Shown here piece by piece: positions 3,499 through 25,490 of a stretch of DNA of 25,490 bases. Below the pieces are notes generated by a model, which was not told where the DNA came from, made no database searches, and saw nothing but the letters and a program-made list of their open reading frames with translations. The stretch covers positions 1-25,490 of the forward strand of contig JAYRKO010000001.1 of NCBI GenBank assembly GCA_041905745.1, in the 5' to 3' direction. Origin of the DNA: Tagaea sp. GTDB taxonomy: Bacteria; Pseudomonadota; Alphaproteobacteria; CACIAM-22H2. Positions within the stretch are counted from its first letter, which is position 1, and every line of letters starts with the position of its first letter. The translations under genes and the position numbers were made by a program.

Positions 3499-3505
3499 CG
3501 CGCCG

Positions 3506-11073: not shown

Positions 11074-11076
11074 CGG

Positions 11077-11751: not shown

Positions 11752-11872
11752 TTCGAGAGGTTCCGGCAGGTCCGCGGGTCTTCGGGGTCCATATAGCAGG
11801 TCGGTTCCGGCGGATGAATGCCCGTAGCGCCGCAGGCACGGCATTTATCAGATGGCTTTCCCGCAGGCCGCC

Positions 11873-11946: not shown

Positions 11947-14139
11947 ATGCCGAGATTGCCGATCAACGGGATAGTTTGCGCTGCGCTGGGCATCGCCGCG
12001 ATCGTGCTCGCGGCAGGTGCGGGCGCGCCTGCCCGTGCGCAGCCCCGAGTCGACTTGCCGTCGGTGATTTCGGCCGACGAGGTGACATCCGATGAGGATC
12101 TCGGCGTCGTCACCGCGAACGGCAATGTCGAGGTGACGCAGGGCGAGCGTCTGCTGAAGGCCGATACGCTTTCCTACAATCGCCGGACCGGCGTGATCAA
12201 CGCCTCCGGCAACGTTTCGCTCGTCGATGAAAACGGCGAGGTCGTGTTCGCCGACTTCCTCGAACTCTCCGGCAATTTCCGCGACGGCGCCGCGCAGAAT
12301 TTCCGCGCGCTGATGGCCGACCAGTCGCGATTCGCCGCCGTCACCGCCCGACGCTCGGACGGCACGCGCATGGTCATGCGGCGCGCGACCTATAGCCCCT
12401 GCCAGCCCTGCAACGAAGATCCCACGCGCGCACCGATCTGGCAGATCCGCGCGGAGCGGATCACGCACGACCAGAAGGAAAAAGAGGTCAGCTACAAGAA
12501 CGCGTGGCTCGAACTCGGCGGGGTCCCGGTCGCCTATACGCCCTACATGGCGCATCCGGACGGCACGGAGAAGCGCAAATCGGGTCTTCTGATCCCCGAT
12601 TTCGCGTCGTCTTCGCAGGTCGGCACGATGGTCGGCGTGCCCTACTACTGGGTGATCGGCCCGTCCGCCGACGCGACGATCACACCGATCGTCCTGTCGA
12701 ACGACCTTCCGATGCTGGCCGGCGAATATCGCGAGCGCGCCCGCACCGGCCAGGTCGAGTATCGCGGGGCGTTCATGAAGACACGCCGCGAAGGCGAGGG
12801 TTTCGGGGACAACCGCGGCTATGTCAGCGGTCGCGGCCGGTTTGACATTGACGACGACTGGCGCTGGGGCTTCGACGGCTCGCGCGCCACCGACAAGACC
12901 TTCATCGACCGCTACCGCCTGCGCCAGCGCTTTGCGTTCCTCGACCAGAACGTGCTCGAAAGCCGGCTCTATACCGAAGGCTTCCGCGATCGCGGCTACG
13001 CGGCGCTCAATGCGTTCAGCTACCAAGGCCTGCGGCCCGAGGACAGCACGTCGACCGCACCGCTCGTCCTTCCGGCGGCGGAGTACAGCTGGTTCGGCGA
13101 GCCGGGTACGACCGGCGGTCGCTTCGGTTTCGAAGCGAATTCGGCATCGATCTACCGCAGCCAGGGCCTGCGCGCGCAGCGCGGTTCGATGGTCGCGAGC
13201 TGGATGCTGCCCTATACGACCAATAGCGGCGAGGTCTACACGCTCGGCGCTTCCCTGCAGGGCGACCTGTTCCACACGACCCGGATCGGCTCGACGACGC
13301 GCGAGTTCCGTCCGGAACAGGACGGCGTCAACACCCGAATCCTGCCCGAAATCACGCTGGGCTGGCGCTATCCGCTCGTACGCTCGGTGCCGGGCGGACG
13401 CATGCTCGTCGAGCCCGTTGCGGCCGTCTATGCGGCGCCGAGCCTCGGCAACCAGGCCTATCTGCCCAACGAAGACAGCCTCGGCTTCACGTTCGACGAT
13501 ACGAACCTGTTCCGGGCGAACCGCTTTGCGGGTTACGACCGCCTCGAAAGCGGCGTGCGGACTGTCTACGGCGCCAACACGCAGTACACGAACGTCTACG
13601 GTCAGCGCTATTCGGTCTTCCTCGGCCAGCAGTTCCGGTCGCGCGAGGAAACGGCTGCGGCTGCGGGATCGGGCATCGATACGCGCTTCTCCGACTTCGT
13701 GGGTCGTATCCAGGCGATCCCCCACTCGTGGGTAACCGCGACCTACCGTTTCCAGGTCGACAGTGCCAACCGCGAGCTACTTCGGTCCGTCAGCTCGCTT
13801 TCCCTCGGTCCCGTGCCACTGCGCTATTCGCTGTCGCACGTGCGCATCGATCGCGCGCTGCAGCCCACGGCACAGGCTTCGATCAACCAGCTTGGCCATT
13901 CCCTTACGGCGGTAATTTCGGAGAACTGGCGCGTGCAGAGCCGCGTCATCCAGCAGCTCGGCGCGGATGCGGGCATCCTCGTAGCCGGCGCCACGTTGTT
14001 TTACGAGGACGACTGCTTCGTATGGGGGCTCGACCTGACGCGGCGGAACATCGGGCGGGCGGAAATTCCGCCCGATACCGCGCTGCTGTTCCGCATCGCG
14101 CTGCGCAATCTGGGCGAAATTTCCCTGCGCGGATATTGA
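11947..14139 (+). CDS. lptD: LPS-assembly outer-membrane translocon LptD (OstA)
   Basis: Signal peptide ending ARA. OstA-like beta-jellyroll (ISADEV...ANGNVEVTQGERLLKADTLSYN), YSPCQPC, PIWQIRA, PY..HPD...KRKSGLLIP, LPNEDS, DTNLF...RFAGYDRLESG and YEDDCF. Confidence 0.95.
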   Translation: MPRLPINGIVCAALGIAAIVLAAGAGAPARAQPRVDLPSVISADEVTSDEDLGVVTANGNVEVTQGERLLKADTLSYNRRTGVINASGNVSLVDENGEVVFADFLELSGNFRDGAAQNFRALMADQSRFAAVTARRSDGTRMVMRRATYSPCQPCNEDPTRAPIWQIRAERITHDQKEKEVSYKNAWLELGGVPVAYTPYMAHPDGTEKRKSGLLIPDFASSSQVGTMVGVPYYWVIGPSADATITPIVLSNDLPMLAGEYRERARTGQVEYRGAFMKTRREGEGFGDNRGYVSGRGRFDIDDDWRWGFDGSRATDKTFIDRYRLRQRFAFLDQNVLESRLYTEGFRDRGYAALNAFSYQGLRPEDSTSTAPLVLPAAEYSWFGEPGTTGGRFGFEANSASIYRSQGLRAQRGSMVASWMLPYTTNSGEVYTLGASLQGDLFHTTRIGSTTREFRPEQDGVNTRILPEITLGWRYPLVRSVPGGRMLVEPVAAVYAAPSLGNQAYLPNEDSLGFTFDDTNLFRANRFAGYDRLESGVRTVYGANTQYTNVYGQRYSVFLGQQFRSREETAAAAGSGIDTRFSDFVGRIQAIPHSWVTATYRFQVDSANRELLRSVSSLSLGPVPLRYSLSHVRIDRALQPTAQASINQLGHSLTAVISENWRVQSRVIQQLGADAGILVAGATLFYEDDCFVWGLDLTRRNIGRAEIPPDTALLFRIALRNLGEISLRGY

Positions 14140-14143
14140 CCGG

Positions 14144-14659
14144 TCAACCGCCGGTCGACGGACGCGCGAGCGCCTGCGCGAGCTGGTTTCGGATATCGTC
14201 GGCGATCAGCGCCAGAACGCGACTGCGCGCATCATCGAGGCTGGTGCGCGTCGCGTATTCCGAGACGGTGATTTCGTAGTCCGTCGTGAAGGTGCTTGCA
14301 CCCGACGCGATCCGGCGGCCCTGTCGGTCGATCAGGTCGAAGCTCGCCACCGCGGCGTAGCTGCTGCGGCTGATCACGTCGTCGCGGCGCAGCGCGATGG
14401 TCTGGCGGGGCTCCTGAAGCCTGATCGTCAGCGTATACTGCTGGGCCACTGCGGCGGCCCCGCGCGGCGTCAAGCTGTCGAGCAGCGCGTTGCGCAGGAT
14501 CTGACCCGATCGATCGGGGATCGGCGCGATCCGGATTGCGGCCAACTCGTCGGGGACCGAACTGCCCGGCTGTCGACCGAGCAAAGGCTGGAATCCGCAT
14601 CCGGCGAGCAGCGTCGCACAGAAGAACATCGCGGCAAGACGGCGTTGGAAACTGGACAA
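14144..14659 (-). CDS. lptE: LPS-assembly lipoprotein LptE
   Basis: TTG start at 14659 preceded by an AGGAG SD overlapping the upstream TAG. Lipobox LAGC, then GFQPL and IAPIPDRSGQILRNAL, typical of alphaproteobacterial LptE; about 171 aa. Confidence 0.85.
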   Translation of the reverse strand: MSSFQRRLAAMFFCATLLAGCGFQPLLGRQPGSSVPDELAAIRIAPIPDRSGQILRNALLDSLTPRGAAAVAQQYTLTIRLQEPRQTIALRRDDVISRSSYAAVASFDLIDRQGRRIASGASTFTTDYEITVSEYATRTSLDDARSRVLALIADDIRNQLAQALARPSTGG

Positions 14660-14670
14660 TTCCTGCACTC

Positions 14671-15546
14671 CTAGATGCGACCGATTTCGGCCTGCATTCC
14701 GGCATCGGGGGCGCGCGACGTGGCGCCCAACCGATGCAGCGCGAAGAATAGCCGATTGAATGCCGCGTCGGGAAGGACCGCGGTCGCGAAGAGCAATATC
14801 CAGACGAGCGCGAGGGGATGGGTCGACGGACGACTGCGCCATTTCCGCCAAAGTTCGAGAAGCGCACCGACGGAATAGATGTCCGCATGCTTGGCGCGGA
14901 TGCGTCGCCACAGCGTCGCGTGGCGGCGCTGCGATACGCTCTGAAGCATTCCGGTCGACTGGCGGCGATAGCGGAACAGCGGTGATTCGACCTGAACGCC
15001 GCGAAAGCCAAGCTTGGAAATGCGGATGTTGAACTCCCAGTCCTCGTATCCTTCGCGCATCGCTTCGTCGTATCCGCCCGACTCCGCCCAGACGGACCGC
15101 CGCATCAGCAGGCAATAGGGCAGCTGGTTCGTGGCGAGCTGCTCGAATAAATTCCACGTCTTGCACACGATGCCGTGCTCGTCGCCGAAAACTTCGATCT
15201 GTGCGTAGGCGTAACCGGCCTCGGAATCCGCATCGAGCGCGGCGACCGTCCGGGCGAGCATGTCCGGCTTGATTTCGTCGTCTGCATCGAGCGGCAGGAC
15301 GAATGTGCCCGTCGCGGCCGCGAAGCCTGCATTGCGCGCCGACGACAGGCCGCCGTTCGATTTGCGAACCAGCTTCACGTCGCCACCGACCACCGCAAGG
15401 AAGGAGATCGTCGACGGATCGGTCGAACCGTCGTCGACGATGATGATCTCGTAGTCGCGAAAATTCTGCGCCCGCACGCTCGCGAGAACCTCGGCGAGGT
15501 ACCGGTGCGCGTTGTAGCAGGGAATGACGACGCTAACCTTGGGCAT
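14671..15546 (-). CDS. GT2 glycosyltransferase
   Basis: MPKVSVVIPCYN, IVDDGSTD, NGGLSSARNAG, PLDADD, GGYDE and YEDWEF; amphipathic C-terminal tail. Confidence 0.92.
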   Translation of the reverse strand: MPKVSVVIPCYNAHRYLAEVLASVRAQNFRDYEIIIVDDGSTDPSTISFLAVVGGDVKLVRKSNGGLSSARNAGFAAATGTFVLPLDADDEIKPDMLARTVAALDADSEAGYAYAQIEVFGDEHGIVCKTWNLFEQLATNQLPYCLLMRRSVWAESGGYDEAMREGYEDWEFNIRISKLGFRGVQVESPLFRYRRQSTGMLQSVSQRRHATLWRRIRAKHADIYSVGALLELWRKWRSRPSTHPLALVWILLFATAVLPDAAFNRLFFALHRLGATSRAPDAGMQAEIGRI

Positions 15547-16312
15547 CGCCAACCTGTGCCGCGGGTCCGCATTGGGCCCAGATTTCACCCCAGAGGGTTA
15601 CGCGCTCGAGCACGACGAGGCCGGCTTGCGCCATCTCGGAAGCAAATTCCGCCAGCGTGTGCTCGATGAAATGCTCGGGATCCGACATCCAGCCAGCCCC
15701 GACTTCGCGCCGCATGGCCATCTTCCAGTCCCGCTCGAAGAGCGGCACGCGGATCAGGATCGTCTGCGGACGGGCGGTCGCGATCAAGGCCCGGAGGAAG
15801 GTGACGCGCGCCTCGATATGCTCGAGGACGTTGGAAAGCACCACGACGTTCCACGGTCCGGCAGGCAGGGAAACCGTGGCGTCGGCGCGGGCAAAGGACA
15901 GGTTGGAGGGATTGTCGGCGGCTTTCGCCGCCGAAAGCCGGCTTTCGTCGAGCTCGATGCCCAGAACCATGGCCGACGGGCGCGCGCGCGCGATGGTCCG
16001 CGCAACGGCGCCGTAACCGCAGCCGACATCCAGCACCTTCGCGCCATCTGCAATCCGTTCGACGAAGAAATCGTGATAGCGCGTGAGGCGGTGTTTGGGA
16101 TGCTCGCCCCGCCCGAGCGCCGTCGCACGCTCGTTGATGGCAAGATCGAGCGCATCCTCGATCGCGAAAAGGTTGCGCAGACCGGCCTGCGCTCCGCCCG
16201 CACGGCCCTCCAGAACGAACAGGCCGAGCGCCACGGCACGACGCAGTCGCACGGGCAGCAGGCCCCACACCGCGGCAATGACGTCCGCCAGTCCGAGCAA
16301 GAATGCTTTCAT
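15533..16312 (-). CDS. Class I SAM-dependent methyltransferase
   Basis: VLDVGCGYG, VLGIE, VVVLSNVLEHI and ILIRVP. ATG at 16312 overlaps the upstream TGA (ATGA). Confidence 0.88.
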   Translation of the reverse strand: MKAFLLGLADVIAAVWGLLPVRLRRAVALGLFVLEGRAGGAQAGLRNLFAIEDALDLAINERATALGRGEHPKHRLTRYHDFFVERIADGAKVLDVGCGYGAVARTIARARPSAMVLGIELDESRLSAAKAADNPSNLSFARADATVSLPAGPWNVVVLSNVLEHIEARVTFLRALIATARPQTILIRVPLFERDWKMAMRREVGAGWMSDPEHFIEHTLAEFASEMAQAGLVVLERVTLWGEIWAQCGPAAQVGDAQG

Positions 16313-17409
16313 CGCGTCAAAGTCTCGAAAACGGCGCGATGGCGGGCGATCCAGTGCCCGATGTCGAAACGGGCTGCCGCCCGCGAACGCGCCATCGCAC
16401 CCAAATTGCGCCGATCGGCCGCAACTCCGCGCATCGCCTTGGCAAGTTCTGCCTCGTCCGGAACCTGCGGCACATCCCAGGATTCGGCGACTTGCACCCC
16501 GATGCCCGCCTCGCCGACGAGTTCCGGGACACCGCCGCTCGCCGAGAACACGATCGGAAGCCCGCACGCCATCGCCTCGATAACCGCGTTCGGACACGCA
16601 TCGTTATGCTTGGTCGAAATATAGACGTGCGCGGCGCGGTAGATTTCGGGTGCTTCCGCCTGCGTGTAGCGCCCCCTGAATTCGATCCGATCGGCGACGC
16701 CGAGTTGCGTGGCGATTTCGCGCGCGCGCTCGATAACGGTCGGCGCAGCCCAACCCGCCAGCCGGAGACACGCATCGAGACCGTCGTCGACGACGCGCGC
16801 GAACCCGCGGATCGCATTCTCGATGCGATAGAAAAGGTGCGCATCCATCTTGCCGGTCATCAGGAAAACGAGCTGCCCCGCAGGGTCGGCTTGCGCAGGT
16901 GTGAAGCGCGACGTGTCGACCGCATTGTAGAGTACCTCGCCCGGGCCTTCGCGCGGACCGAGGAAGATGTCGGCACCGCGACGGCAAAACTCGCTCTGCC
17001 AGAAGACGTGGGCGGCTTGCCTGTAGGTACGCGCCATGCGCGCGTTTTCGCCACGCCAGTCACCGCGATACCATGCGGGGTAGAACAGGCCGTTCTGGTT
17101 GTGGACGATCGGGACTCCGCGCAGCCGCAGAAGTGCGAGAGCGAAATCCGGCAAATAGGGCGCATTGCTCAGCGTGTAGACCAGATTGTAATCCGCGCGA
17201 TGTTCCGGGAAGTACTCGACCAAGCGCCGGACCTTGACGAGCGGTCCACCGACATCGCCGACGAGCGCGCCGCCGTAGTAGACACGTGGCGCGCCACGCG
17301 CGCCCGAGAATGGCATGGCCGCCAGCGCGCCGACCCCCAAAGCGACTGCATAGGCCGCACGCGCCATTGCCTTGGCGGGCGAAATATCGCGTCGGAAGTC
17401 GTCGCTCAT
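16309..17409 (-). CDS. GT4 (GT-B) glycosyltransferase
   Basis: VLYNAVDTSRF, LRLAG, DACPNAVIEAMACGLPIVFSASGGVPELVG. ATGA overlap at the start. Confidence 0.9.
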   Translation of the reverse strand: MSDDFRRDISPAKAMARAAYAVALGVGALAAMPFSGARGAPRVYYGGALVGDVGGPLVKVRRLVEYFPEHRADYNLVYTLSNAPYLPDFALALLRLRGVPIVHNQNGLFYPAWYRGDWRGENARMARTYRQAAHVFWQSEFCRRGADIFLGPREGPGEVLYNAVDTSRFTPAQADPAGQLVFLMTGKMDAHLFYRIENAIRGFARVVDDGLDACLRLAGWAAPTVIERAREIATQLGVADRIEFRGRYTQAEAPEIYRAAHVYISTKHNDACPNAVIEAMACGLPIVFSASGGVPELVGEAGIGVQVAESWDVPQVPDEAELAKAMRGVAADRRNLGAMARSRAAARFDIGHWIARHRAVFETLTR

Positions 17410-18206
17410 CGGGCCGGCTTGCGGGCAATACCCATCAACATGTGCGCGCAGAATCCCGACCACACGAACGGCGAGAGGCCGCGACCGAGCGCTTTGGCAA
17501 GCTTCGTGTCGTAGTGAAGCCCAAAGACCTGCCAAAGCATGCGCACGATCCCCTGCCGCTTTGCGACGGGCACCAGATCGAGAACGTCGAAGCCGTTGTT
17601 GGCGAGATAGTTGCGCATCTCGCCGCGTGTGAGACGCCATTGATAGAATCGTTTTCGCCGGTAGGCGGCTTCTACCTGTCGCTTTGCGTCAAAGGCAGCC
17701 GCAAAGGCGTGGCGAAGATTGTCGAACGGCGTGGTGATGAAGAGATATCCGCCGGGCTTGAGAAGCCGCAGGGCCTCGGTCAGACAAGGATCGAGGCCGT
17801 CTTCGAAATGCTCGAATGTGCCCCACGAAAAATAGGCATCGAATGAGGCATCGGGGAATCCGGTCGCGCGGATATCGCCGGCCCGAAACTCGATATTCGG
17901 AAAGACGGAGCGCAGCTGCGCGATGGTTTCCTGCGAGAGGTCCAGTCCCACCGTTGCGTAGCCGAGGCCGGCGAGATGGGCGGTCCATTCGCCAAGACCG
18001 CAGCCGCCATCGAGGATTCTGGCGCCCAACGGAAGGCGTTGCAGATATGGCCACATAAGTCGGAACTCGTCCTGGCGCGGTACGCGCGAGGTGGAGCCGG
18101 TAGGGCCGCCCATTCGGCGCCAAACTTCGGTCCAATGCGCGGCGATATGCGTCGCTTCGTCACGGGAGGCCGTTTCGTCAGCGACAGCCATATAGTCCTT
18201 GCGCAT
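17406..18206 (-). CDS. Class I SAM-dependent methyltransferase (type 11-like)
   Basis: ILDGGCGLGEW, VGLDLS, GDIRATGFPDASFDAYFSWGTFEHF and RLLKPGGYL. AAGGAG SD upstream of ATG 18206. Confidence 0.88.
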   Translation of the reverse strand: MRKDYMAVADETASRDEATHIAAHWTEVWRRMGGPTGSTSRVPRQDEFRLMWPYLQRLPLGARILDGGCGLGEWTAHLAGLGYATVGLDLSQETIAQLRSVFPNIEFRAGDIRATGFPDASFDAYFSWGTFEHFEDGLDPCLTEALRLLKPGGYLFITTPFDNLRHAFAAAFDAKRQVEAAYRRKRFYQWRLTRGEMRNYLANNGFDVLDLVPVAKRQGIVRMLWQVFGLHYDTKLAKALGRGLSPFVWSGFCAHMLMGIARKPAR

Positions 18207-18268
18207 CTTGCTTGCTTGCTCCTTGGCGACCGGGATGCCACCCACTTATTCCGACAGTCATGCAGGAC

Positions 18269-18287
18269 GGTCAATAAGAACTTGACG
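18269..18287. promoter_or_regulatory. Back-to-back -35-like hexamers (divergent promoters)
   Basis: TTGACC on the minus strand (18274-18269) and TTGACG on the plus strand (18282-18287), 7 bp apart in the divergent gap. The -10 boxes are weak. Confidence 0.35.
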
Positions 18288-18356
18288 CGCCCGCCGACCC
18301 TCGTCTACCCCACGGCAGAACTGCAACGTCCCGAACGACCGACGAACAGAGCGAAC

Positions 18357-19361
18357 ATGTCCAAGATCGAAGTTTCCGGACGTAAAGTGGCAGTCACCGG
18401 CGGCGCCGGCCTGATCGGATCGTTCCTCGTCGAAGAACTGCTGGCGCGCGGCGCGAAGGTCGTCGTCGTTGACGATTTTTCGACCGGCCTGCGCGGCCAC
18501 CTTTCCGCGGTCGAGAAAAGTATCGAAGTGCGCGAAGGCGACCTCGAGCGTTCCGGCTTCGCCCTCGAGGCCCTCGAAGGAACCGACATCGTCTTTCACC
18601 TCGCGAGCCGCGCATTCGGCGTGGGTTACGGCGCCTCGCGCCATCTCGAGATCTGCCTGCACAACGAGCGCGTGACGAACAACGTCGTCGAAGCGATCGC
18701 CCGACACCGGCCCGCGTTCGCGCTCGCCGTGTCGTCTTCGTGCGTCCACCGCGACGACGGGCCGGACACGTTCCCGGAACTGCCCGTCTACGACGGCGAC
18801 CCCGAACGGGCGAACAGCGGCTACGGTTGGGCCAAACGCTTTCTCGAGACAAAGTTCGCAATGATGTCCGAAGCGAGCGGCGTTCCGATTGTCCTCGCAC
18901 GCCCCGTCAACGTCTATGGCGAGCGTTATCGCTGGCGCGGCAGGAACAGCCAGGCGATTCCCATGCTGGTCCACAAAGTAATGGGCGGAATGGATCCGCT
19001 CGTGGTCTGGGGCAGCGGCCGACAGCGCCGCAACTACATCCATGCGATCGATTGCGCGCGCCTGCTGCTGCGGCTCGTCGAGGCAAATGCCGCCGGCCAG
19101 ACGGTGAATGTCGGCTTCGAAGACACGATTTCGATGGGCGAACTGGTTTCGATGATCATCGAAATCGCGGGCTCCAAGGCGCAGCCCTCGTTCGATACGA
19201 CCAAGCCGGAGGGGCGTTTCGTCAAGTCGGCCGATTCGACGCGGTTGCGAAGCCTGCTGGGCGAATGCCGCCCCGAAATCGACATCCGGGAGGGCTTGCG
19301 TCGAATGCTGCAGTGGTATCGTACCTTGCCGCCGGGCGACAAATCGCCGCTTTCTGATTGA
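18357..19361 (+). CDS. NAD-dependent NDP-sugar epimerase/reductase (GDP-mannose 3,5-epimerase / GDP-fucose synthase-like extended SDR)
   Basis: TGGAGLIGS, VDDFSTG, SSSC, YGWAK (YxxxK), RP.NVYG, NSQAIPMLVHK, WGSG.Q.R.YIH and DTTKPEG. Confidence 0.85.
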   Translation: MSKIEVSGRKVAVTGGAGLIGSFLVEELLARGAKVVVVDDFSTGLRGHLSAVEKSIEVREGDLERSGFALEALEGTDIVFHLASRAFGVGYGASRHLEICLHNERVTNNVVEAIARHRPAFALAVSSSCVHRDDGPDTFPELPVYDGDPERANSGYGWAKRFLETKFAMMSEASGVPIVLARPVNVYGERYRWRGRNSQAIPMLVHKVMGGMDPLVVWGSGRQRRNYIHAIDCARLLLRLVEANAAGQTVNVGFEDTISMGELVSMIIEIAGSKAQPSFDTTKPEGRFVKSADSTRLRSLLGECRPEIDIREGLRRMLQWYRTLPPGDKSPLSD

Positions 19362-19381
19362 GCGAAAAAAGCAGGAGCCGG

Positions 19382-20239
19382 ATGAAAATGGAACTGGCCC
19401 GATATCGATTTCCCGACGTTGACCTTCAGACGATCGAAGCAGTCGTCAGAGATCAGGGCATTTGCATCCTGGAAGGGTTTCTCGCAAGCGATCAGGTCCG
19501 GCAAATCTCGGCCGAGCTGAAGCGGCTGCACGACGAGCATGCGGCATGGCTCCGGCACCATCAGACGGCGTCCGGATACTTCATGAGTTGCTCGCCATTG
19601 CGCCTGAAGCAGGAAGCAGCACGGGCACCGGCGCTGGTCGGGGCGCTCAGGACACCCCTTATTCCCGCGATGTCGGCGCGCTATCTCGGCCCCGGATGGT
19701 ATCTGGAAACGGTCATCGCCGACTTCAAGAACCCGAGCGGAAATCCAATCACGAACTGGCACAGCGACGATCCAGCTTCGCTGCGCGGCATGTGTCTCAA
19801 GTTCATGTTCTATCTCTGCGATATTTCGTCGGACAACGGCGCGTTTGCGTTCGTGCCGAAATCGCATCGCCTGATCGGACGCCTGGCGCAGGCTGTGGGA
19901 CGGCACGGCGAAACGCAGGAAGCTCTTTACGATTACTTCGACATGCGTCAGACCGCGCTCAAGGTCGGAAGCTTCGACGACATCCTGAAGTCGACGGAGT
20001 TCAACGCGATGGACGAAGCGATCGTAAATGCCGGGAATGACGCATTCAGCGTCGAGGCGCCGGCAGGATCCGTCATTGTCTTCGACTCGTGCGGCGTTCA
20101 CCGTGGCGGCGTTCCCGAACATGGATCCAGATCCATTTTCCGGGCTCATTTCAGGAATTTCCAGGCGTCCGCACATCTGTCGACGCCGCGCAACGCGTAC
20201 AATTACGCGCGCAACGTGCTCGCACGGCGCCTGGCCTGA
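19382..20239 (+). CDS. PhyH-like Fe(II)/2-oxoglutarate dioxygenase (alternative TTG start 19358)
   Basis: QG.CILEGFL, WHSD (HxD), GAFAFVPKSH and GSVIVFD..GVHRG (distal His, Arg). AGGAG SD precedes the ATG. Confidence 0.82.
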   Translation: MKMELARYRFPDVDLQTIEAVVRDQGICILEGFLASDQVRQISAELKRLHDEHAAWLRHHQTASGYFMSCSPLRLKQEAARAPALVGALRTPLIPAMSARYLGPGWYLETVIADFKNPSGNPITNWHSDDPASLRGMCLKFMFYLCDISSDNGAFAFVPKSHRLIGRLAQAVGRHGETQEALYDYFDMRQTALKVGSFDDILKSTEFNAMDEAIVNAGNDAFSVEAPAGSVIVFDSCGVHRGGVPEHGSRSIFRAHFRNFQASAHLSTPRNAYNYARNVLARRLA

Positions 20240-20258
20240 CGAACGACGTGACGGCCGA

Positions 20259-21359
20259 TTACGGGCCCAACAGCGGCGCGTATACTTTTTCCCAGTGTGC
20301 GGCAGCAACGGCGGACCAGTCGTATGCCGCGATATCCGCACGCGCCGCGGCAGTCCAAGCTCGCCCGCATGCCGGATCGACAAGCACGGCCGCCGCCCGC
20401 GCGGCAAACGCGCCGACATCGCCGACCGGCACAAGCGCGCCGTTGATCCCGTCGCGGATCATGTCGGATGCCATACCGCAATCGGCCGCAACGATTGGAA
20501 CGCCGGCGGCAAAGCTTTCAGGTATCGCCTTGGGCCCACCTTCCTCGCGCGACGTCATCAGGTAGAGATCGAGGGCCGCATATGCATCGGCGATCTTCAG
20601 ATAGTCGTCGAGAAAGACGTGGCGAACCGGGACCCCGGCCGCCGCGAGCCCGGCCTTGACGTAACCCCGCGCCGGCCCCGTCAGCAGCGCCATGACCGGT
20701 AGGCCACGGGCACGCAATGCCGCCATCGCCGCAACGAAGATGTCCGGTCCCTTGATGAGCTTGGGCTCGTTTCCGTCACCCCACCCGACCCCGTCCTTCT
20801 GGAACGAACCGACCGCGATCGCATTCTCCGGGATGCCGAAGGCAGCGCGCGCCGCGGCCCGGCGATTCGCGTCCGCCGGCGCAAAATGGTGCGTATCGAC
20901 GCCGATCGGGATCCGCACGACGCGCTCCTTCGGGACGCCCCATTCGACAAGGCGCCGTTCCATGAGCGAGGCTGCCGTCACGACGCACGCGACCCGGTCG
21001 AGGCGCGCCAAGAACGCCTCGACATCGCGCGCCGCATCGGGGCCGTCTTCCGGCTTGCCGTGGAAGTAGGTCACGACGTAGGCCGGCCCGCGCGGAAGGT
21101 GGGCGCTCCATGCGTTCCACAGAAAGTGCGAACCGAAATGCACGACCGCGCCCGCCGCACGCCACGGACTCTCCGAGATGCACGCCGTCCCGGGTCGCAC
21201 CGCGTCGATGCCGCGCGTGATGTAGAGGCCATCCCAGCGGATCGACCAGTCGTTGCGTTCGACGACGAACGTCACCGGAAAAGGCTTCAGCCGCAGACCG
21301 GGCAGACGACCGGCCTGCGCGAGCAGCGTACGCACGCCCTCGCGAAGGAATTCCTTCAT
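20259..21359 (-). CDS. GT4 (GT-B) glycosyltransferase
   Basis: RIPIGVDTHHF, K.IKGPD, DLYLMTSREEGGPKAIPESFAAGVP (EX7E) and NGALV. ATGA overlap at the start. Confidence 0.9.
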   Translation of the reverse strand: MKEFLREGVRTLLAQAGRLPGLRLKPFPVTFVVERNDWSIRWDGLYITRGIDAVRPGTACISESPWRAAGAVVHFGSHFLWNAWSAHLPRGPAYVVTYFHGKPEDGPDAARDVEAFLARLDRVACVVTAASLMERRLVEWGVPKERVVRIPIGVDTHHFAPADANRRAAARAAFGIPENAIAVGSFQKDGVGWGDGNEPKLIKGPDIFVAAMAALRARGLPVMALLTGPARGYVKAGLAAAGVPVRHVFLDDYLKIADAYAALDLYLMTSREEGGPKAIPESFAAGVPIVAADCGMASDMIRDGINGALVPVGDVGAFAARAAAVLVDPACGRAWTAAARADIAAYDWSAVAAAHWEKVYAPLLGP

Positions 21360-22384
21360 GCGGTCACCTGTGCGCGCAGAAAGGCCAGAGGAGAACGCCA
21401 AAGGCGGCGCGCGGCGACAATCTCCCTGCGGTGGGCGAGAATTTCTTCGAGTGCGGCAAGCCAGTCAGCGCACATCCGCCGTGCAGTCCACGGATAGGCA
21501 GGCATCTTCGCGCGCGCGTCCGCATAGCGCGCGGCCAGTCGCTCGAAAGCTTCGGCAAAGTCGGCCGGGCCGTCAAACGCCTCGCCGAAGCCGCGGCAAT
21601 ATTCGGGCATGCAACCGCTGTTGCGATACAGGAGCGGCAGACCGCAGCACGCCCCCTCGTTCTGATGATTGCCGCCCGGCTCGAACTGCGAGGCGGTCAC
21701 ATAGGCATGATGACCTCGCAACTCGTCGGCGAGCGCCTTTCCGGACAGTGGCGGTACATACGTTGCGTTGCGGAAGCGGAAGCCAGTCGGCAGGTTCCCG
21801 ACATAGGTGAAGGCAAGCCGGGCCCGCCATTGCGGCGCGTCGAGAAGTCTATCGATTGCCGAATAGACGTCGAATCCTTTGAGCGGATTGAAGCCCCAAT
21901 GGTGCGTGACGAGGCGCAGCGGGCCAGTGCCGTCCCACGGGACTTGGCCGGCATCGTTGAAAAGTGTCTCGTCGGCGCCGTTGCGCAAGACCTTGAAGGG
22001 TGTACGCCGGTTGGCTTGCCAGACGGGAAGCTCGGTGAGCCATTCGCCGACGAACGCGGTCACGTCGGCGCAGTAGTTCGCTCGCGCCAGCATCGCATCG
22101 ATATGCCGAGTTCCCTTGCGCAAATCACATTCGTTGATCCTGTGGATCACGACCGCGTCGGGGTTGCGCAGCCAGAGATACCGCAGGACCGCACCCGGCC
22201 CGAATGCCGCCGCCGGATTTCGTCGCCGCGGATCCGTCAGCACGATCGCGTCGATGTCGCGATCCGACAGATCGAAGCGAACCGCGTGACCGGCGCGCTC
22301 AAGACCGTCGGCAAGCGCGTGGGCGAACATGTTGCCCCCGCCCCACGGTCCCTCCATAAGGCGATGGCCGAGCGCGACTTTCAT
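21356..22384 (-). CDS. GT4-like (GT-B) glycosyltransferase
   Basis: PWGGG..F, NGAD..LF, KGFD and ASQFEPGGNHQNEGACCGLPLLY (EX7E). Confidence 0.8.
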   Translation of the reverse strand: MKVALGHRLMEGPWGGGNMFAHALADGLERAGHAVRFDLSDRDIDAIVLTDPRRRNPAAAFGPGAVLRYLWLRNPDAVVIHRINECDLRKGTRHIDAMLARANYCADVTAFVGEWLTELPVWQANRRTPFKVLRNGADETLFNDAGQVPWDGTGPLRLVTHHWGFNPLKGFDVYSAIDRLLDAPQWRARLAFTYVGNLPTGFRFRNATYVPPLSGKALADELRGHHAYVTASQFEPGGNHQNEGACCGLPLLYRNSGCMPEYCRGFGEAFDGPADFAEAFERLAARYADARAKMPAYPWTARRMCADWLAALEEILAHRREIVAARRLWRSPLAFLRAQVTA

Positions 22385-22400
22385 TCTGGACGCCGTGTCG

Positions 22401-23174
22401 TCACGTCGCGTCGCCGAGGCGATACTCCGGGTTGAGCCCGCTCTTGGCGTAGTAGAGACTGCCCGCATCGTCGGCACCGCGTCGCGCAATCGCCGCATAG
22501 CGCATGCCCACGAGTTCCGGATTCGTCTTGCGAAAGCAGCCGCTTTCGTGGATCGGGCCGAAGCCCGCCATGTCGAGCCAAGCGCGGATCGCGCCAGCGC
22601 TCGGCAGATGCGTGATCGTCCCGGTGTCGCGGAACGTCTGCGGCCAGTGGATCTGGACAAACGCGCCGTCACGAAGGGCCCGAGATCCGCGCAATGTCGA
22701 ACTTTCGAGCACAAGCCATCCGTCCGGCGCAAGTTGGCGGAACAGCAGGCGCAGCATCCGGAGTTGTTCGGCGTTGTGATAGAGGACGCCGGTGAACCAG
22801 ACGAGATCGAACCGGCCGAGTTCGGCGCGCGCTGAGGCGTCCATATAGAGATAGTTCGCTTCGATGTACTTCTTGGGGCAGTCGATGCCGGCGATCCATT
22901 CCCGGTTGACGGTCCCCTTCTCGGGCAGATCCAGCATCACGAGTTCCGCGGGTGCAAGGGTTGCCAGTCGGCGCGAGTCGAGCCCGTCGCGCGGGCCGAT
23001 TTCGAGTATCCGCTTGCCAGCGAAGCGGCCTGTGCCCGCCAATGCAACGAGTTCGTCAAACAGCGCGATTCGGTAGGGCAGCCATTCCTCTCCTTCCTTG
23101 CGCGGACCGCGCACAAGCGTGCGAAGTCGTTCGCGCAGCGGTGCAGGCAGGAGTGCGGCGAGTCGTCGGATCAT
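22401..23174 (-). CDS. Class I SAM-dependent methyltransferase (CmoB/DUF1698-like fold, probably glycan-acting)
   Basis: ILEIGPRDG, FDLVWFTGVLYH and LAPDGWLVLES. ATGA overlap at the start. Confidence 0.82.
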   Translation of the reverse strand: MIRRLAALLPAPLRERLRTLVRGPRKEGEEWLPYRIALFDELVALAGTGRFAGKRILEIGPRDGLDSRRLATLAPAELVMLDLPEKGTVNREWIAGIDCPKKYIEANYLYMDASARAELGRFDLVWFTGVLYHNAEQLRMLRLLFRQLAPDGWLVLESSTLRGSRALRDGAFVQIHWPQTFRDTGTITHLPSAGAIRAWLDMAGFGPIHESGCFRKTNPELVGMRYAAIARRGADDAGSLYYAKSGLNPEYRLGDAT

Positions 23175-24340
23175 TTCGTTCCATCCAGAGCTTGGCCACG
23201 CGCCGATTTGGCCCGTTCGGCGGAAAGTCGGTCGGCAAGTGCGACGATGGCGCGATCCATCCGCGCGAGGCCGAAATGACGCACGGCATCTGCACGCGCG
23301 GTTTCGCCGATACGCCGGCGCAATGCCGGTTCGGCCATCAGCCGTTCGATCGCGGCACCAAAGGCGGCCGGATCGCCCGGCGGCACGAGAATGCAGTTCT
23401 CGCCCGAACGAAACACTTCGGGATCCCACAGGCCGCGATTTCTGGTCAAGACGACCGGGCGGCCGCAAGCCATCGCCTGCAGCGTCACCGAGTAACCGCT
23501 GGGCTGGTAGACGTCGTGGAGCGGGACCGCGACGATCGCAGCCGACCGGTAGAGATCGCGCAGCACGACATCCGTGATCGGCGAGCCGTAGAGATTGCCG
23601 CGGACGATTTCGACGCTTCTGCCGGCAGGCACATCAACGGGCAGGCTCGTAAGGATGCGCAAGCTTGCCGTCGTAGGCGCTCCAACGAGCGTCGCATAGT
23701 CGCGCTGCGGGTCCGAACCGACCGCAAACACCCGCGGCTCCTCTGCGGCGGCATCCGACGGGATCCAGAAATCCGTGTCGACTCCGAAGGGGAACAGCGA
23801 CGTTTTCGCGGCATCGAGACCGTACATCTCGATCGATTGCCGACGATCCACCTCGCCGAAGAAGAACATGTGGTCTAGACCGTGCAGCGCCCGCGCGATG
23901 CGTCGCCGCACCAACGGACGGGCCCACGGTCGCGCGCGCATGTGGATGTCCGCAAGACCGTGGAAGCCTCCCGCGAGGTACGGTCCGCCCTGTCGCCGCC
24001 AGTACCCCATCGAGAGGCTGAAGGCGTCGGTAAAGCTGAGCGCTATATCGGCGCGAGCGAAGGACGGCTCGAGGGCACGCACGCGCTGACGCGACATTCC
24101 GAAGACCAGAAAGCGGTTGCGCACCACTTCCCACATCAGATCGAGCTTCGCCGCAAAGCCAGTCGGCGCCGATCGCGTATCGCCGATTTCGCAGCGACGC
24201 CCGGTCTCGACCAATCCGAGATATCCGTAGAAGAAGTCCCGCGGAACCGAACCAGACGCGAGTTCGGCAAGGCGACGGCGACGACTTTCCCCGGGATAGA
24301 GGAAGAGGTAGCTGTTTTTGTCCGTCGAAGCGTCCGGCAT
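23171..24340 (-). CDS. GT4 (GT-B) glycosyltransferase
   Basis: FPFGVDTDFW, AVG...QRDYATL, A.IVAVPL, SGYSVTLQAMACGRPVV and LVPPGDP. Confidence 0.87.
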   Translation of the reverse strand: MPDASTDKNSYLFLYPGESRRRRLAELASGSVPRDFFYGYLGLVETGRRCEIGDTRSAPTGFAAKLDLMWEVVRNRFLVFGMSRQRVRALEPSFARADIALSFTDAFSLSMGYWRRQGGPYLAGGFHGLADIHMRARPWARPLVRRRIARALHGLDHMFFFGEVDRRQSIEMYGLDAAKTSLFPFGVDTDFWIPSDAAAEEPRVFAVGSDPQRDYATLVGAPTTASLRILTSLPVDVPAGRSVEIVRGNLYGSPITDVVLRDLYRSAAIVAVPLHDVYQPSGYSVTLQAMACGRPVVLTRNRGLWDPEVFRSGENCILVPPGDPAAFGAAIERLMAEPALRRRIGETARADAVRHFGLARMDRAIVALADRLSAERAKSARGQALDGTK

Positions 24341-24352
24341 GCGGCAGTCTCT

Positions 24353-25490
24353 TCAGGTTCGCTCGGCCCGGAACGATTCGACGTAGCGCGCAAGCCGCTC
24401 GGAATAGCTCTTGTCGAATGAGTCGGCAAAATAAGTCGCCGCTCGCCGCATCCTATCCGCGCTGCCCGGTTCGCGACTACGCGCAATCAACTCGGCAACC
24501 TTCGCGATGAACTCCGTCCGGCTTCGTGCGACGACGAAATCGGGCGATTCGTAGATCGGTACGAAGTGCTTGAGCGGCGAAACCCGCTTGAAGTTGATCG
24601 AATCCTCTTCCGCCGGCAGATAGCACATGGCCGCCCGCCCCATCACGGCGGCCTCCACAATGACCGTCGAGAGCGGCGAAACGACCGCATCGACATGCGT
24701 GAGCGCATCGCGCATGACGGCATAATCGGTAAGGTAGACGCCGTCGAACCCCTCTTTCACCCGCCGCAGATACTCCTTCATTGTCGGGTCGATCGTTATG
24801 TGCCGCCATTTGCGATCGAGAATCCGCCCGCCACCCTTGCCGCCGAGACCCCATGGATGCGGACGATAGAATACGTGCACGCCAGCGCCGGCGCCGGTTT
24901 CGATCCACTCTTCGAGACTTTCAAGATGGCTATATTCGTCGAGAATCTTCGACGATCCGGCATACATGAGAATCGTTCGCCCTTCGGGAAGGCCGTTTTC
25001 GCGAAGGTAATCCTGCCGCGACTTGGGTGACGGTACGCGATAGACGTCGAACTGGGCTGCGCCGAACCGAACCACGGTCGGCGCCTGCACGCCCAGGTGA
25101 TCGCGGGCGTGTTCTTCCGTCTGCTGACCCCAGACGAACAGCCGATCCGGCATCGACTGCGCATATCGGCATGTCGAGATGTTGTCCCAGGAATTCATCA
25201 GCAGGAAGAGTGGAATTCCACAGCGTTTGCTGTAATCGAGAAGGTCGTTGACGAACAATCCGTCCATGACTGTCGGATGGATGATGAGGTCGAATCCGCC
25301 GCCTTCGAGAAATGCCTCGAGGTCGCGGTTCGGATTCCGGGCAAGTTTCATTCGGCCGAGCGCCCGGTAGATCTGGAAAACCCCGGGTAGCGCGGCGAGC
25401 GTGAACTGGATTGCGTGAAGCCGACCGACGGCAACCCGCGACGAGAACCGCAGATACTTCGCCTGGGGACCGGGCCGCCAACGCAGCCGG
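24353..25490 (-). CDS. GT-B protein of the TagF/CDP-glycerol glycerophosphotransferase-like or CMP-sugar transferase class (5' end outside window)
   Basis: NSWDN, PDRLFVWG, GAAQFD, YRPHP and STVIVEAA. The frame stays open from ATG 25351 to the right edge (manual translation), so the gene is truncated. Confidence 0.65.
   Translation of the reverse strand, partial: RLRWRPGPQAKYLRFSSRVAVGRLHAIQFTLAALPGVFQIYRALGRMKLARNPNRDLEAFLEGGGFDLIIHPTVMDGLFVNDLLDYSKRCGIPLFLLMNSWDNISTCRYAQSMPDRLFVWGQQTEEHARDHLGVQAPTVVRFGAAQFDVYRVPSPKSRQDYLRENGLPEGRTILMYAGSSKILDEYSHLESLEEWIETGAGAGVHVFYRPHPWGLGGKGGGRILDRKWRHITIDPTMKEYLRRVKEGFDGVYLTDYAVMRDALTHVDAVVSPLSTVIVEAAVMGRAAMCYLPAEEDSINFKRVSPLKHFVPIYESPDFVVARSRTEFIAKVAELIARSREPGSADRMRRAATYFADSFDKSYSERLARYVESFRAERT

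Follow-up and report, generated by a model that had tools for sequence, protein, structure and literature searches.

Gene content and organization of the locus

The analyzed window of 25,490 bp is the entire contig C6 of a metagenome-assembled Tagaea genome (Alphaproteobacteria) from activated sludge, which consists of 781 contigs and has a completeness of 84%. Genes were called by matches to Pfam and NCBIfam profiles, and one divergent GT-B gene was classified by Atlas features. Between positions 14144 and 25490 lie genes for five GT-B enzymes, one GT2 glycosyltransferase, and three class I SAM methyltransferases, together with a cassette of an SDR and a dioxygenase gene. In the direction of transcription, the first gene on the minus strand codes for a TagF-like GT-B enzyme without a Pfam match (24353..25489), whose reading frame is still open at position 25490 with approximately 88 codons missing at the 5′ end. 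It is followed on the same strand by the GT4-family glycosyltransferase GT4a (23171..24340; Pfam Glyco_trans_1_4 and Glycos_transf_1), the methyltransferase MT1 (22401..23174; Methyltransf_23, E 5.8e-14), the divergent GT-B gene GTx (21356..22384), and the GT4-family enzyme GT4c (20259..21359; Glyco_trans_1_4, E 4.9e-19). GTx has no Pfam or NCBIfam match, and its putative classification as a GT1/GT4-like glycosyltransferase comes from Atlas features, the nearest clusters carrying Glycos_transf_1. The lptE-proximal part of the block, also on the minus strand, comprises the methyltransferase MT2 (17406..18245; Methyltransf_25 and Methyltransf_11, E 2e-20), the GT4-family enzyme GT4d (16309..17409; Glyco_trans_1_4, E 1.9e-18), the methyltransferase MT3 (15533..16312; Methyltransf_23, E 2.4e-15), the GT2-family (GT-A) enzyme GT2b (14671..15546; Glycos_transf_2, E 3.4e-31), and lptE (14144..14668; Pfam LptE, 26.4 bits at a cut-off of 23). 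Convergent with lptE lies lptD on the plus strand (11947..14139; Pfam LptD, E 1.6e-54), which forms a conserved boundary to the variable locus. The profile matches reproduce the gene order given in an earlier sequence-only reading and support its description of a cluster for glycan assembly in which several SAM methyltransferase genes are interspersed among those of GT-B glycosyltransferases. Three interleaved methyltransferases were recovered, whereas the putative gene at position 2695, which had been counted as a fourth, has only a sub-threshold match to FkbM (30.1 bits; cut-off 37.7).

The two parts of the block form two tightly coupled transcription units, the first ending with GT4c and the second running from MT2 to lptE, with which the glycan operon ends. 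All previously described junctions are present. ATGA start/stop overlaps occur at 23171 (GT4a/MT1, with the MT1 start codon within it), 21356 (GTx/GT4c), 17406 (MT2/GT4d), and 16309, and GT4d thus carries such an overlap at both ends. MT3 and GT2b overlap by 14 nt if GT2b starts at the ATG at 15546. The gaps between the TagF-like gene and GT4a (12 nt) and between MT1 and GTx (16 nt, given a GTx start at ATG 22384) do not exceed 16 nt, and GT2b and lptE overlap or abut. Since unrelated neighbors in the window show a four-base overlap as well (a heparinase-like gene and galE) or abut (an rSAM and a GT2 gene), the ATGA junctions are not special to pairs of glycosyltransferases and methyltransferases.

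The two units are separated by an inverted cassette on the plus strand, in which an SDR sugar-nucleotide epimerase/reductase (approximately 18357..19361; Pfam Epimerase, E 9e-40) precedes a PhyH-family Fe(II)/2-oxoglutarate dioxygenase (19358..20239; Pfam PhyH, E 2.7e-16). The ATG at 18357 is the likely start of the SDR gene because a longer reading frame from 17976 overlaps MT2. The encoded protein resembles GDP-fucose synthases, GDP-L-fucose synthase being its best NCBIfam match (below cut-off), and a GDP-mannose 4,6-dehydratase occupies the equivalent place in the related locus L017. The PhyH gene is convergent with GT4c at a distance of 19 nt and was found at this position in only one other Tagaea locus (G014-C1; 58% identity).

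Related loci and the apparently missing exporter

Genes for an exporter, a polymerase, a ligase, or an initiating transferase are missing from the 25-kb window. Because the window is a whole contig, this describes the assembly and not the genome. The glycosyltransferase/methyltransferase block adjoining lptE is shared by four Tagaea loci (G013, G014-C1, G014-C5, and G008; 67–91% amino acid identity), and in all four the upstream continuation of the cluster encodes NeuB, NeuC, and NeuA and, at a distance of four to eight genes from the shared block, a fused TMD-NBD ABC exporter. These ABC proteins contain ABC_membrane and ABC_tran domains, and their best NCBIfam matches are PglK, MsbA, and HepA, all below cut-off. 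Contig C115 of G013 shows synteny with the whole window, from the M48 gene to lptD at 75–92% amino acid identity (82–91% for GT2b, MT3, GT4d, GT4c, GTx, MT1, and GT4a; 84% for GT4a and 85% for lptD), and the synteny continues through the rest of the window. Upstream, G013 encodes a TagF-like protein, an SDR, a methyltransferase, NeuA/C/B, a 657-amino-acid fused ABC protein, many amino-sugar and nonulosonate genes, and, further upstream in the same region, a WaaL-like ligase of the Wzy_C family. The TagF-like proteins of G014-C1 and G008 are 79 and 72% identical to that of the window (GT4a of G014-C1: 78%), and in both loci this gene is followed by a pyruvyl-transferase-like gene, NeuA, NeuC (above the NCBIfam cut-off), NeuB, and the ABC exporter.

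A separate contig of the window's own genome, C333, represents the other flank of this approximately 45-kb region. It matches the far flank of the G013 region with 65–85% identity and likewise stops at a contig end, indicating that the variable middle was simply not assembled; in the source sample, Logan contigs are of short length and contain strain SNPs. The seeming absence of an exporter is an assembly artifact, and the exporter-free assembly line of the sequence-only reading is not supported, given a window that ends inside its first gene and the upstream exporter of four related loci. The supposed lack of a ligase and an initiating transferase fares no better, given the WaaL-like gene of the G013 region and genes of WecA- and WbaP-family initiating transferases at other places in the same genome as the window. 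The assembly of that genome lacks the exporter, the Neu genes, and WaaL, with tblastn yielding only generic ABC paralogs of 34–40% identity, and their predicted presence there is an extrapolation from mosaic relatives.

The flanks of the relatives carry an export set of the kind that the sequence-only reading had itself named as evidence against its model, except that a PglK/MsbA-type exporter takes the place of a Wzm/Wzt pair. Searches with PF01943 (the only Pfam model tried for Wzx) and PF01061 detected no Wzx-type gene near the relatives' loci and no Wzm-type gene at their locus, respectively; Wzm-like genes are located 77–100 kb away. All of the 20 other Tagaea genomes contain Wzy_C genes, frequently at 35–57 kb from the TagF-like gene, and the matches in the wider region were read as WaaL-like rather than Wzy. 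The Wzy_C family also includes PglL-type protein O-oligosaccharyltransferases. Orthologs of lptE are present in all 21 Tagaea genomes, and in seven of eight further Tagaea loci inspected lptE immediately follows GT2b or the fused ABC exporter. The glycan locus shows serotype-like mosaic variation within the genus.

Predicted functions of the methyltransferases and the TagF-like enzyme

A module of a TagF-like, a GT4, a GT4-like, a methyltransferase, two further GT4, a methyltransferase, and a GT2 gene was found in 28 of 80 loci of other bacteria. Homologs of GTx occur in 48 of the 80 loci (median identity 54%) and homologs of MT1 in only 13. Two arrangements of a glycosyltransferase gene followed by a methyltransferase gene are conserved well beyond Tagaea, namely GTx-MT2 (21 loci, outside the rearrangement seen in the window) and GT4d-MT3 (14 loci); MT3 is followed by GT2b in 11 loci. 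The coupling of MT2 to GT4d in the window is a genus-specific rearrangement, as elsewhere MT2 comes after GTx, and no fusion of a glycosyltransferase and a methyltransferase gene was found in the 80 loci examined. The methyltransferases belong to generic class I types, and small molecules are the substrates of their best relatives of solved structure; it is their genomic context that suggests an O-methylation of sugars.

Full-length orthologs of the TagF-like enzyme comprise 455–471 amino acids and share the invariant motifs HP, MNSWDN.S, YRPHP, and SP.ST...E; some family members are multi-module proteins of 1300–1550 amino acids with a polymerase-like appearance. The AF2 model of the G014 ortholog (79% identical; pLDDT 85) has a GT-B fold, with 2-epimerases as nearest structures (UDP-GlcNAc 2-epimerase/NeuC, Z 22), followed by TarL/TagF (Z 18–20). 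Besides a weak sequence match to TarL, the protein shows a weak partial match to the BFO_1060 nonulosonate transferase family (NF046086; 33 bits, cut-off 200), and it stays below the thresholds of both this family and Pfam PF04464. TagF-like homologs have a NeuA gene no more than 10 kb away in 65 of 80 loci and a NeuB gene in 61, making the enzyme a candidate CMP-nonulosonate transferase. With the CDP-alditol phosphotransferases TagF/TarL (PF04464) it shares the fold, the RPHP motif, and a conserved C-terminal nucleotide-binding stretch, D..(I/V)S..S....E, that aligns with TarL, but it lacks a PF04464 match, and the only cytidylyltransferase in the loci is of the NeuA type and not of the TagD/TarI type. 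Knockout-supported pseudaminic and legionaminic acid transferases of Tannerella forsythia (Tanf_01245, TFUB4_00887, and BFO_1060; PMC5420450) are similar in size (approximately 445–465 amino acids), in their GT-B/TagB-like domains and HP motif, and in having genes for CMP-nonulosonate synthesis and for a methyltransferase as neighbors. Their D/E-D/E-G motif is not evident in the TagF-like protein, however, and their target is a protein O-glycan, whereas here it is probably an LPS glycan.

Interpretation and comparison with known pathways

With moderate confidence, we interpret the region 14144–25490 as the end nearest lptE of a large locus, mosaic and variable between strains, for an O-antigen-type LPS glycan that would be methylated, nonulosonate-bearing, and exported by a Wzk/PglK-like protein. 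At the cytoplasmic face, the glycosyltransferases would build the glycan, probably containing a GDP-derived 6-deoxyhexose, on a lipid carrier, the methyltransferases would O-methylate particular residues, and the TagF-like enzyme would add nonulosonic acid from a CMP-activated donor. The PglK/Wzk-type ABC exporter would then flip the completed glycan on its lipid, WaaL would ligate it to lipid A-core, and Lpt would bring it to the surface, with lptE being co-transcribed with the glycan genes. We infer the attachment to LPS, which no single gene of the window proves.

In a model along the lines of the sequence-only reading, stoichiometric glycosyltransferase-methyltransferase complexes would make a short, heavily O-methylated oligosaccharide (an LOS-like outer core or glycolipid headgroup) stepwise and directly on lipid A-core or a different lipid. 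No dedicated flippase, polymerase, or ligase would be required; housekeeping MsbA or an MsbA-like paralog would flip the product and Lpt would export it. The operon end in lptE, the two conserved gene adjacencies, the negative PF01943 and PF01061 searches at the relatives' locus, and an associated ABC protein equally similar to MsbA and PglK are consistent with this proposal, and multiprotein glycosyltransferase/terminator complexes are known from ABC-dependent O-antigen synthesis (PMC11231755). We nevertheless consider it unlikely, as all related loci carry a dedicated exporter gene and the G013 region a WaaL-like gene, while the lack of gene fusions, the restriction of the MT2-GT4d coupling to Tagaea, and the overlaps between unrelated genes argue against specific complexes.

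Linkage to lptE also bears on two further explanations, both of which appear quite improbable. In general protein O-glycosylation as in T. forsythia, PglK-like ABC proteins would flip a methylated, nonulosonate-capped oligosaccharide on Und-PP, and a PglL-type Wzy_C enzyme would transfer it to periplasmic or surface proteins. PglK does serve as a flippase in protein glycosylation, and the breadth of the Wzy_C family would allow for such a transferase. The TagF-like enzyme is distantly related to the T. forsythia nonulosonate transferases, which complete a protein O-glycan (PMC5420450). Across the genus, however, the operon is joined to lptE and adjacent to lptD, the variation of the locus is serotype-like, and the surroundings showed neither a target protein nor an S-layer gene. 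The second alternative is a lipid-anchored surface polysaccharide, capsule-like or otherwise, that would resemble the Kdo- or pseudaminic acid-rich K antigens of rhizobia and be exported by the fused ABC protein without ligation to lipid A-core. It could account for the Capsule_synth-like (KpsC/S-like) genes alongside the module in L017, G013, and G014-C5 and for the polymerase-like multi-module TagF-like proteins, and capsules with nonulosonate are common. Against it stand the coupling to lptE, the nearby WaaL, the distance of the Wzm-like genes, and the failure to find KpsM/T/E/D-type export genes in the loci inspected.

The O-antigen-type cluster favored here is ordinary in kind though uncharacterized. 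Its closest counterpart is the Helicobacter pylori O antigen pathway with WecA, the PglK-like flippase Wzk, and WaaL (PMC2841628). In both cases a PglK-related fused TMD-NBD ABC exporter replaces Wzx or Wzm/Wzt, a Wzy polymerase is missing, WaaL and the initiating transferase are encoded apart from the glycosyltransferase genes, and the whole glycan is completed in the cytoplasm, as predicted for Tagaea from its genes. The Tagaea genes differ in being clustered beside lptE/lptD rather than scattered and in including three methyltransferases and a nonulosonic acid branch; furthermore, the putative exporter was seen only in relatives of the window's genome. ABC-dependent O-polysaccharide assembly, whose terminators include WbdD of Escherichia coli O8/O9a, methyl-phosphate in Klebsiella O3/O7, and Kdo in Klebsiella O4/O12 (PMC11231755), likewise combines several GT4 or GT2 enzymes with methyltransferases, allows for capping by a CMP-donor ulosonic acid transferase, involves enzyme complexes (hypothetical for Tagaea), and has wecA and waaL located elsewhere. 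The Tagaea cluster departs from it in having no Wzm/Wzt pair and no discernible coiled-coil ruler or kinase domain, and its methyltransferases are separate small proteins among the glycosyltransferases instead of a single terminator module.

Gene content of the window

Gene calling combined family scans with a search for reading frames rich in G + C at the third codon position; the window has a G + C content of 64–72%. In the direction of transcription, the minus-strand block at 14144–25490 consists of a TagF-like gene (24353–25489) with an open 5′ end, the GT4 glycosyltransferase gene GT4a (23171–24340), the class I methyltransferase gene MT1 (22401–23174), GTx (21356–22384; 342 aa), GT4c (20259–21359), the methyltransferase gene MT2 (17406–18245), GT4d (16309–17409), a further methyltransferase gene, MT3 (15533–16312), the GT2 gene GT2b (14671–15546), and lptE (14144–14668; Pfam LptE, 26.4 bits, cut-off 23). 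Between GT4c and MT2 a plus-strand cassette carries genes for an SDR epimerase/reductase (likely start 18357, end 19361) and a PhyH-type dioxygenase (19358–20239), and lptD (11947–14139, plus strand) converges on lptE. The products of GT4a, GT4c, and GT4d matched Glycos_transf_1/Glyco_trans_1_4 above threshold. GTx matched no Pfam or NCBIfam model and fell short of assignment to GT4; it is called GT1/GT4-like from ESM-Atlas features only, the nearest clusters carrying Glycos_transf_1. The gene order proposed in the sequence-only reading is borne out by these data, and each overlap and gap (four ATGA overlaps, one overlap of 14 nt, gaps of 12 and 16 nt) was found where claimed, which confirms that observation; neither the genes nor their close packing is in doubt. 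For the additional methyltransferase gene placed at 2695, the only match was one to FkbM that fell below threshold. Sigma-70 promoters and intrinsic terminators were no commoner in the window than in shuffled sequence.

Searches of PDB sequences with the three methyltransferases and one GT4 retrieved generic relatives only. As the methyltransferases are generic class I enzymes, it is only their context that points to O-methylation of sugars. The cassette SDR is closest to GDP-L-fucose synthase, with a score below the model cut-off, a GDP-mannose 4,6-dehydratase gene occupies the equivalent place in one of the compared loci (L017), and the window's own genome has a gmd-like (GDP-mannose 4,6-dehydratase-like) gene that is apparently split over the ends of contigs C139 and C701. 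Together these similarities make it a reasonable guess that the glycan may hold a GDP-derived 6-deoxyhexose. On C701, another SDR gene follows the gmd-like fragment.

Outside the block, a radical SAM gene (4529–5680) abuts a GT2 gene (3506–4528), and the FkbM-like gene (2695–3498) converges on both. This trio at 2695–5680 is 85–92% identical in G013, a related Tagaea genome, and therefore forms a further small, conserved set of glycan-related genes that lies beyond the variable locus. A CDP-glucose 4,6-dehydratase gene (7429–8460; TIGR02622, 396 bits, above cut-off) lies alone between rsmB and galE, and the window contains neither a glucose-1-phosphate cytidylyltransferase gene nor downstream dideoxyhexose genes. 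The minus-strand genes for Rpe, a heparinase II/III-like protein, and GalE (8450–11844) are tightly packed, an arrangement kept in G013 and in another relative, G011.

The contig end and the loci of relatives

The sequence-only reading described a glycan assembly line without an exporter, which, if real, would have been unusual, and family scans indeed detected no Wzx flippase or Wzy polymerase in the window. Contig C6, of which the window is the full length, belongs to a metagenome-assembled genome (MAG) with 781 contigs and an estimated completeness of 84%, and the contig's final base lies inside the TagF-like gene, of which 378 codons are present vs. 455–471 aa in orthologs. Relatives carry a gene for a fused ABC exporter upstream of the corresponding point, and the claim is thus not upheld: the exporter-less appearance most probably results from the contig ending within a hypervariable locus, and the reading of such breaks as biology is a common trap in MAG interpretation.

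The best proxy for the DNA beyond 25490 is the 75-kb contig C115 of G013, which is syntenic with the entire window. Amino acid identities are 75–92% for the M48 protease, FkbM-like protein, GT2, radical SAM protein, RsmB, CDP-glucose dehydratase, heparinase-like protein, Rpe, and LptD, and 82–91% for LptE, GT2b, MT3, GT4d, GT4c, GTx, MT1, and GT4a. Upstream of its TagF-like gene, G013 encodes an SDR, a methyltransferase, NeuA, NeuC, NeuB, and a fused ABC transporter of 657 aa, and in addition more methyltransferases, a PhyH protein, amidotransferases, a formyltransferase, three DegT aminotransferases, a GNAT protein, a second NeuB, a PseB/LegB-like dehydratase, a radical SAM/SPASM enzyme, and a Capsule_synth-like protein. 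C115 also encodes a Wzy_C (WaaL-like) protein, at a distance of 44 kb from the TagF-like gene. Neu genes and a fused ABC exporter gene were likewise found upstream of the same block in two loci of G014 (contigs C1 and C5) and in G008, whose locus was read across two apparently abutting contigs (C28 and C84). For the stretch beyond 25490, the region to which the check for export and ligase genes had been directed, the prediction is therefore the remainder of the TagF-like gene followed, within about 8 kb, by genes for a pyruvyl-transferase-like protein, NeuA, NeuC, NeuB, and a fused ABC exporter, and at a greater distance by a waaL-like gene. The fused ABC gene also occurs in G011 and G009, where it directly adjoins lptE; on G014 contig C1, which ends within the gene, only the C-terminal ATPase part is present. 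These transporters consist of ABC_membrane and ABC_tran domains, and the best-matching models are PglK, MsbA, and HepA, all below cut-off. NeuC encoded beside the TagF-like gene in relatives scored above the NCBIfam cut-off, and N-acetylneuraminate synthase is the nearest family to NeuB. No separate pair of ABC-2 permease and ATPase (Wzm/Wzt or KpsM/T) was found at the locus in Tagaea, where ABC2_membrane matches lie on other contigs or 77–100 kb from lptE.

Contig extension past 25490 by exact-protein look-up, an exact 32-mer scan of metagenome contigs, and a protein-pattern scan yielded nothing. When the upstream proteins of G014, G008, and G013 were used in tblastn searches of the window's own genome, only generic ABC paralogs (34–40% identical) and one flank were recovered. 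This flank, contig C333 (11,130 bp), is 65–85% identical to the far flank of the G013 glycan region, shares with it genes for an aminotransferase with a CBS domain and an LPG_synthase_TM-like protein, and breaks off at its end inside the latter gene. C333 therefore represents the other border of the unassembled region, which leaves a variable stretch of about 45 kb with its two edges assembled and its middle missing. The sequencing runs that contain the window sequence derive from activated sludge and wastewater. In the probable source run, Logan contigs at the locus are a few hundred bases long with many minor-allele positions, exactly the pattern that strain mixtures would give, and Logan contigs from four runs were too fragmented to span the end of C6.

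Comparison among relatives revealed a mosaic. The segments from lptE to GT4d and from GT4c to GTx are 81–90% identical to both G013 and the C5 locus of G014, whereas MT2 and the SDR show 88% and 78% identity to the C5 locus vs. 61–62% to G013. Conversely, MT1 and GT4a are 91% and 84% identical to G013, and in the C5 locus MT1 is absent and GT4a reaches 44%. The TagF-like protein has identities of 79% to the C1 locus of G014 and 72% to G008, vs. 33–36% to G013 and the C5 locus, and PhyH (58%) has a counterpart in the C1 locus only, the other loci being without a copy at this position. In comparisons with loci L113, L118, L011, and L122, adjacent genes of the window flip between 82–91% and 33–62% identity to one and the same relative, with one apparent breakpoint where GT4a meets the TagF-like gene and others flanking the segment of SDR, PhyH, and MT2. 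The G014 MAG contains two versions of the locus, one chromosomal (contig C5; L118/L119) and one on the 17-kb contig C1 (L011), which extends from lptE to the ABC gene; they probably stem from co-existing strains. The chromosomal lptE match of G014 is in two pieces, which may reflect a frameshift or an assembly error. Block-wise mosaicism and two versions in G014 are what a surface-glycan locus that determines serotype would be expected to show, and the mosaic is consistent with diversifying selection acting on a surface antigen in activated sludge.

The TagF-like family and the module in other bacteria

An AlphaFold model of the G014 ortholog of the TagF-like protein has a GT-B fold (pLDDT 85, pTM 0.86). 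The nearest solved structures are UDP-GlcNAc 2-epimerases including NeuC (Z 22), followed by TarL and TagF (Z 18–20); Foldseek and VIA-align assigned the GT-B fold and did not separate transferase from 2-epimerase. TarL was the only PDB sequence match and aligned across the conserved nucleotide-binding stretch. At E ≤ 0.01, PF04464 matched neither the window protein nor the full-length ortholog, and roughly a tenth of the family members listed have a weak precomputed match to it; their source annotations read hypothetical or "TagB/SpsB family." The family (about 461 clusters at 50% identity, E ≤ 1e-30) has the invariant motifs HP, MNSWDN.S, YRPHP, and SP.ST...E. Some relatives of 1313–1546 aa (P0190, P0194, and P0229) contain three or four separate profile matches, and such multi-module proteins (1300–1550 aa), of which the family has a few, look like polymerases.

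The BFO_1060 family (NF046086) matched with 33.3 bits over 67 residues, below its cut-off of 200. Its members are TagB-like transferases of pseudaminic and legionaminic acid in Tannerella forsythia that have an HP motif and whose assignment is supported by knockouts (PMC5420450). The GT-B fold of the model, the HP motif, and the linkage to CMP-nonulosonate synthesis genes, traits of the nonulosonic-acid transferase class, were all found for the TagF-like protein, which is a fairly probable candidate for a CMP-nonulosonate transferase. A hydrolase or epimerase, or an enzyme using a CDP-alditol donor, is conceivable; no gene resembling TagD/TarI turned up in the related loci, and the only cytidylyltransferase encoded nearby is of the NeuA type. 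The family, tightly linked to nonulosonic-acid genes, supplies candidates for the poorly known class of nonulosonate transferases.

An alignment of the TagF-like proteins was scanned against one genome per species, and the neighborhoods of 80 homologs were compared. Most belong to Alphaproteobacteria (Thalassospira, Magnetovibrio, Rhodospirillales, Rhizobiales, and SAR116), the remainder to Verrucomicrobiota, Betaproteobacteria, and others. Within 10 kb of the TagF-like gene, NeuA is encoded in 65, NeuB in 61, GT4a in 52, and GTx in 48 of the 80 loci, and an ABC ATPase or fused ABC protein in 43, about 37 of them in open frames of at least 560 aa; 28 loci have four or more of the eight GT/MT genes. 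The usual order is ABC, NeuB, (NeuC), NeuA, TagF-like, (SDR), GT4a, GTx, MT2, GT4c, GT4d, MT3, GT2b. Direct adjacencies recur for GTx followed by MT2 (21 loci), GT4d by MT3 (14), and MT3 by GT2b (11). The window's junction of MT2 followed by GT4d occurs in none of the loci outside the genus, MT1 is present in only 13 of the 80, and a Rosetta-stone test found no GT and MT in a single frame in any of them. This conserved neighborhood would fit modification by each methyltransferase of the residue added by the neighboring GT, and it is neutral as to physical GT–MT complexes. Multiprotein complexes of glycosyltransferases with terminator enzymes are known from ABC-dependent O-antigen synthesis (PMC11231755). 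The conserved and portable GT/methyltransferase module was not found described in the literature searched and is uncharacterised.

Link to lipopolysaccharide and comparison with known systems

In seven of eight further Tagaea loci inspected, lptE is the last gene and co-directional, after GT2b or the ABC exporter gene. The eighth (L115, G018:C1:3154700-3174699) lacks a TagF-like gene; it encodes NeuB/C/A and, beside lptE in divergent orientation, a Wzx-type protein (Polysacc_synt), so that one chromosomal site hosts glycan loci with different export routes; in every other Tagaea genome, Polysacc_synt genes are far from lptE. All 21 Tagaea genomes have a single lptE ortholog, apart from the extra copy on the variant contig of G014. 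Wzy_C proteins, a model that covers WaaL, PglL, and Wzy alike, are encoded in all 20 other Tagaea genomes, often sharing a contig with the TagF-like gene at a distance of 35–57 kb; the window's own assembly, 84% complete, yielded none. Initiating transferase families are represented there by PF00953 (WecA/MraY; contigs C261, C79, and C108) and PF02397 (WbaP; C69).

Most likely, the locus directs synthesis of a methylated O-antigen-type LPS glycan with nonulosonic acid, which would be exported by a PglK/Wzk-like ABC flippase and then ligated by WaaL. Stepwise assembly of an LOS-type glycan directly on its acceptor is unlikely given the fused ABC gene of the relatives. Transfer of the glycan to protein by O-glycosylation, for which the Wzy_C family also includes PglL-type enzymes, is very unlikely beside a locus that ends in lptE. 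Flagellin glycosylation was rejected, since the surroundings contain no flagellar genes and the locus is linked to an exporter, lptE, and WaaL. A capsule, to which the Capsule_synth-like protein of G013 might hint, is likewise highly improbable, no KpsM/T pair having been seen in the loci inspected. The O-antigen-type reading can be extended, tentatively and with considerable doubt, to a widespread, horizontally shared pathway in which the TagF-like/GT/MT set, NeuB/A, and the PglK-like exporter would produce an O-methylated oligosaccharide of defined length with a nonulosonate cap, whose ligation to LPS would follow a Wzk-type route that is otherwise known from Helicobacter alone, with the TagF-like proteins as a new CMP-nonulosonate transferase family and lptE of Tagaea transcriptionally fused to glycan synthesis.

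The locus is an uncharacterised example of a known system type, in which the conserved module and the candidate transferase family are of modest interest; its relatives are environmental examples of LPS-type loci with a PglK/MsbA-like exporter replacing Wzx or Wzm/Wzt. In ABC-dependent O-antigen systems, the initiating transferase and the ligase are normally encoded outside the glycosyltransferase cluster. The O antigen of H. pylori is made with WecA, the PglK-like flippase Wzk, and WaaL, and there, too, initiating transferase and ligase are encoded apart from the glycosyltransferase genes (PMC2841628).
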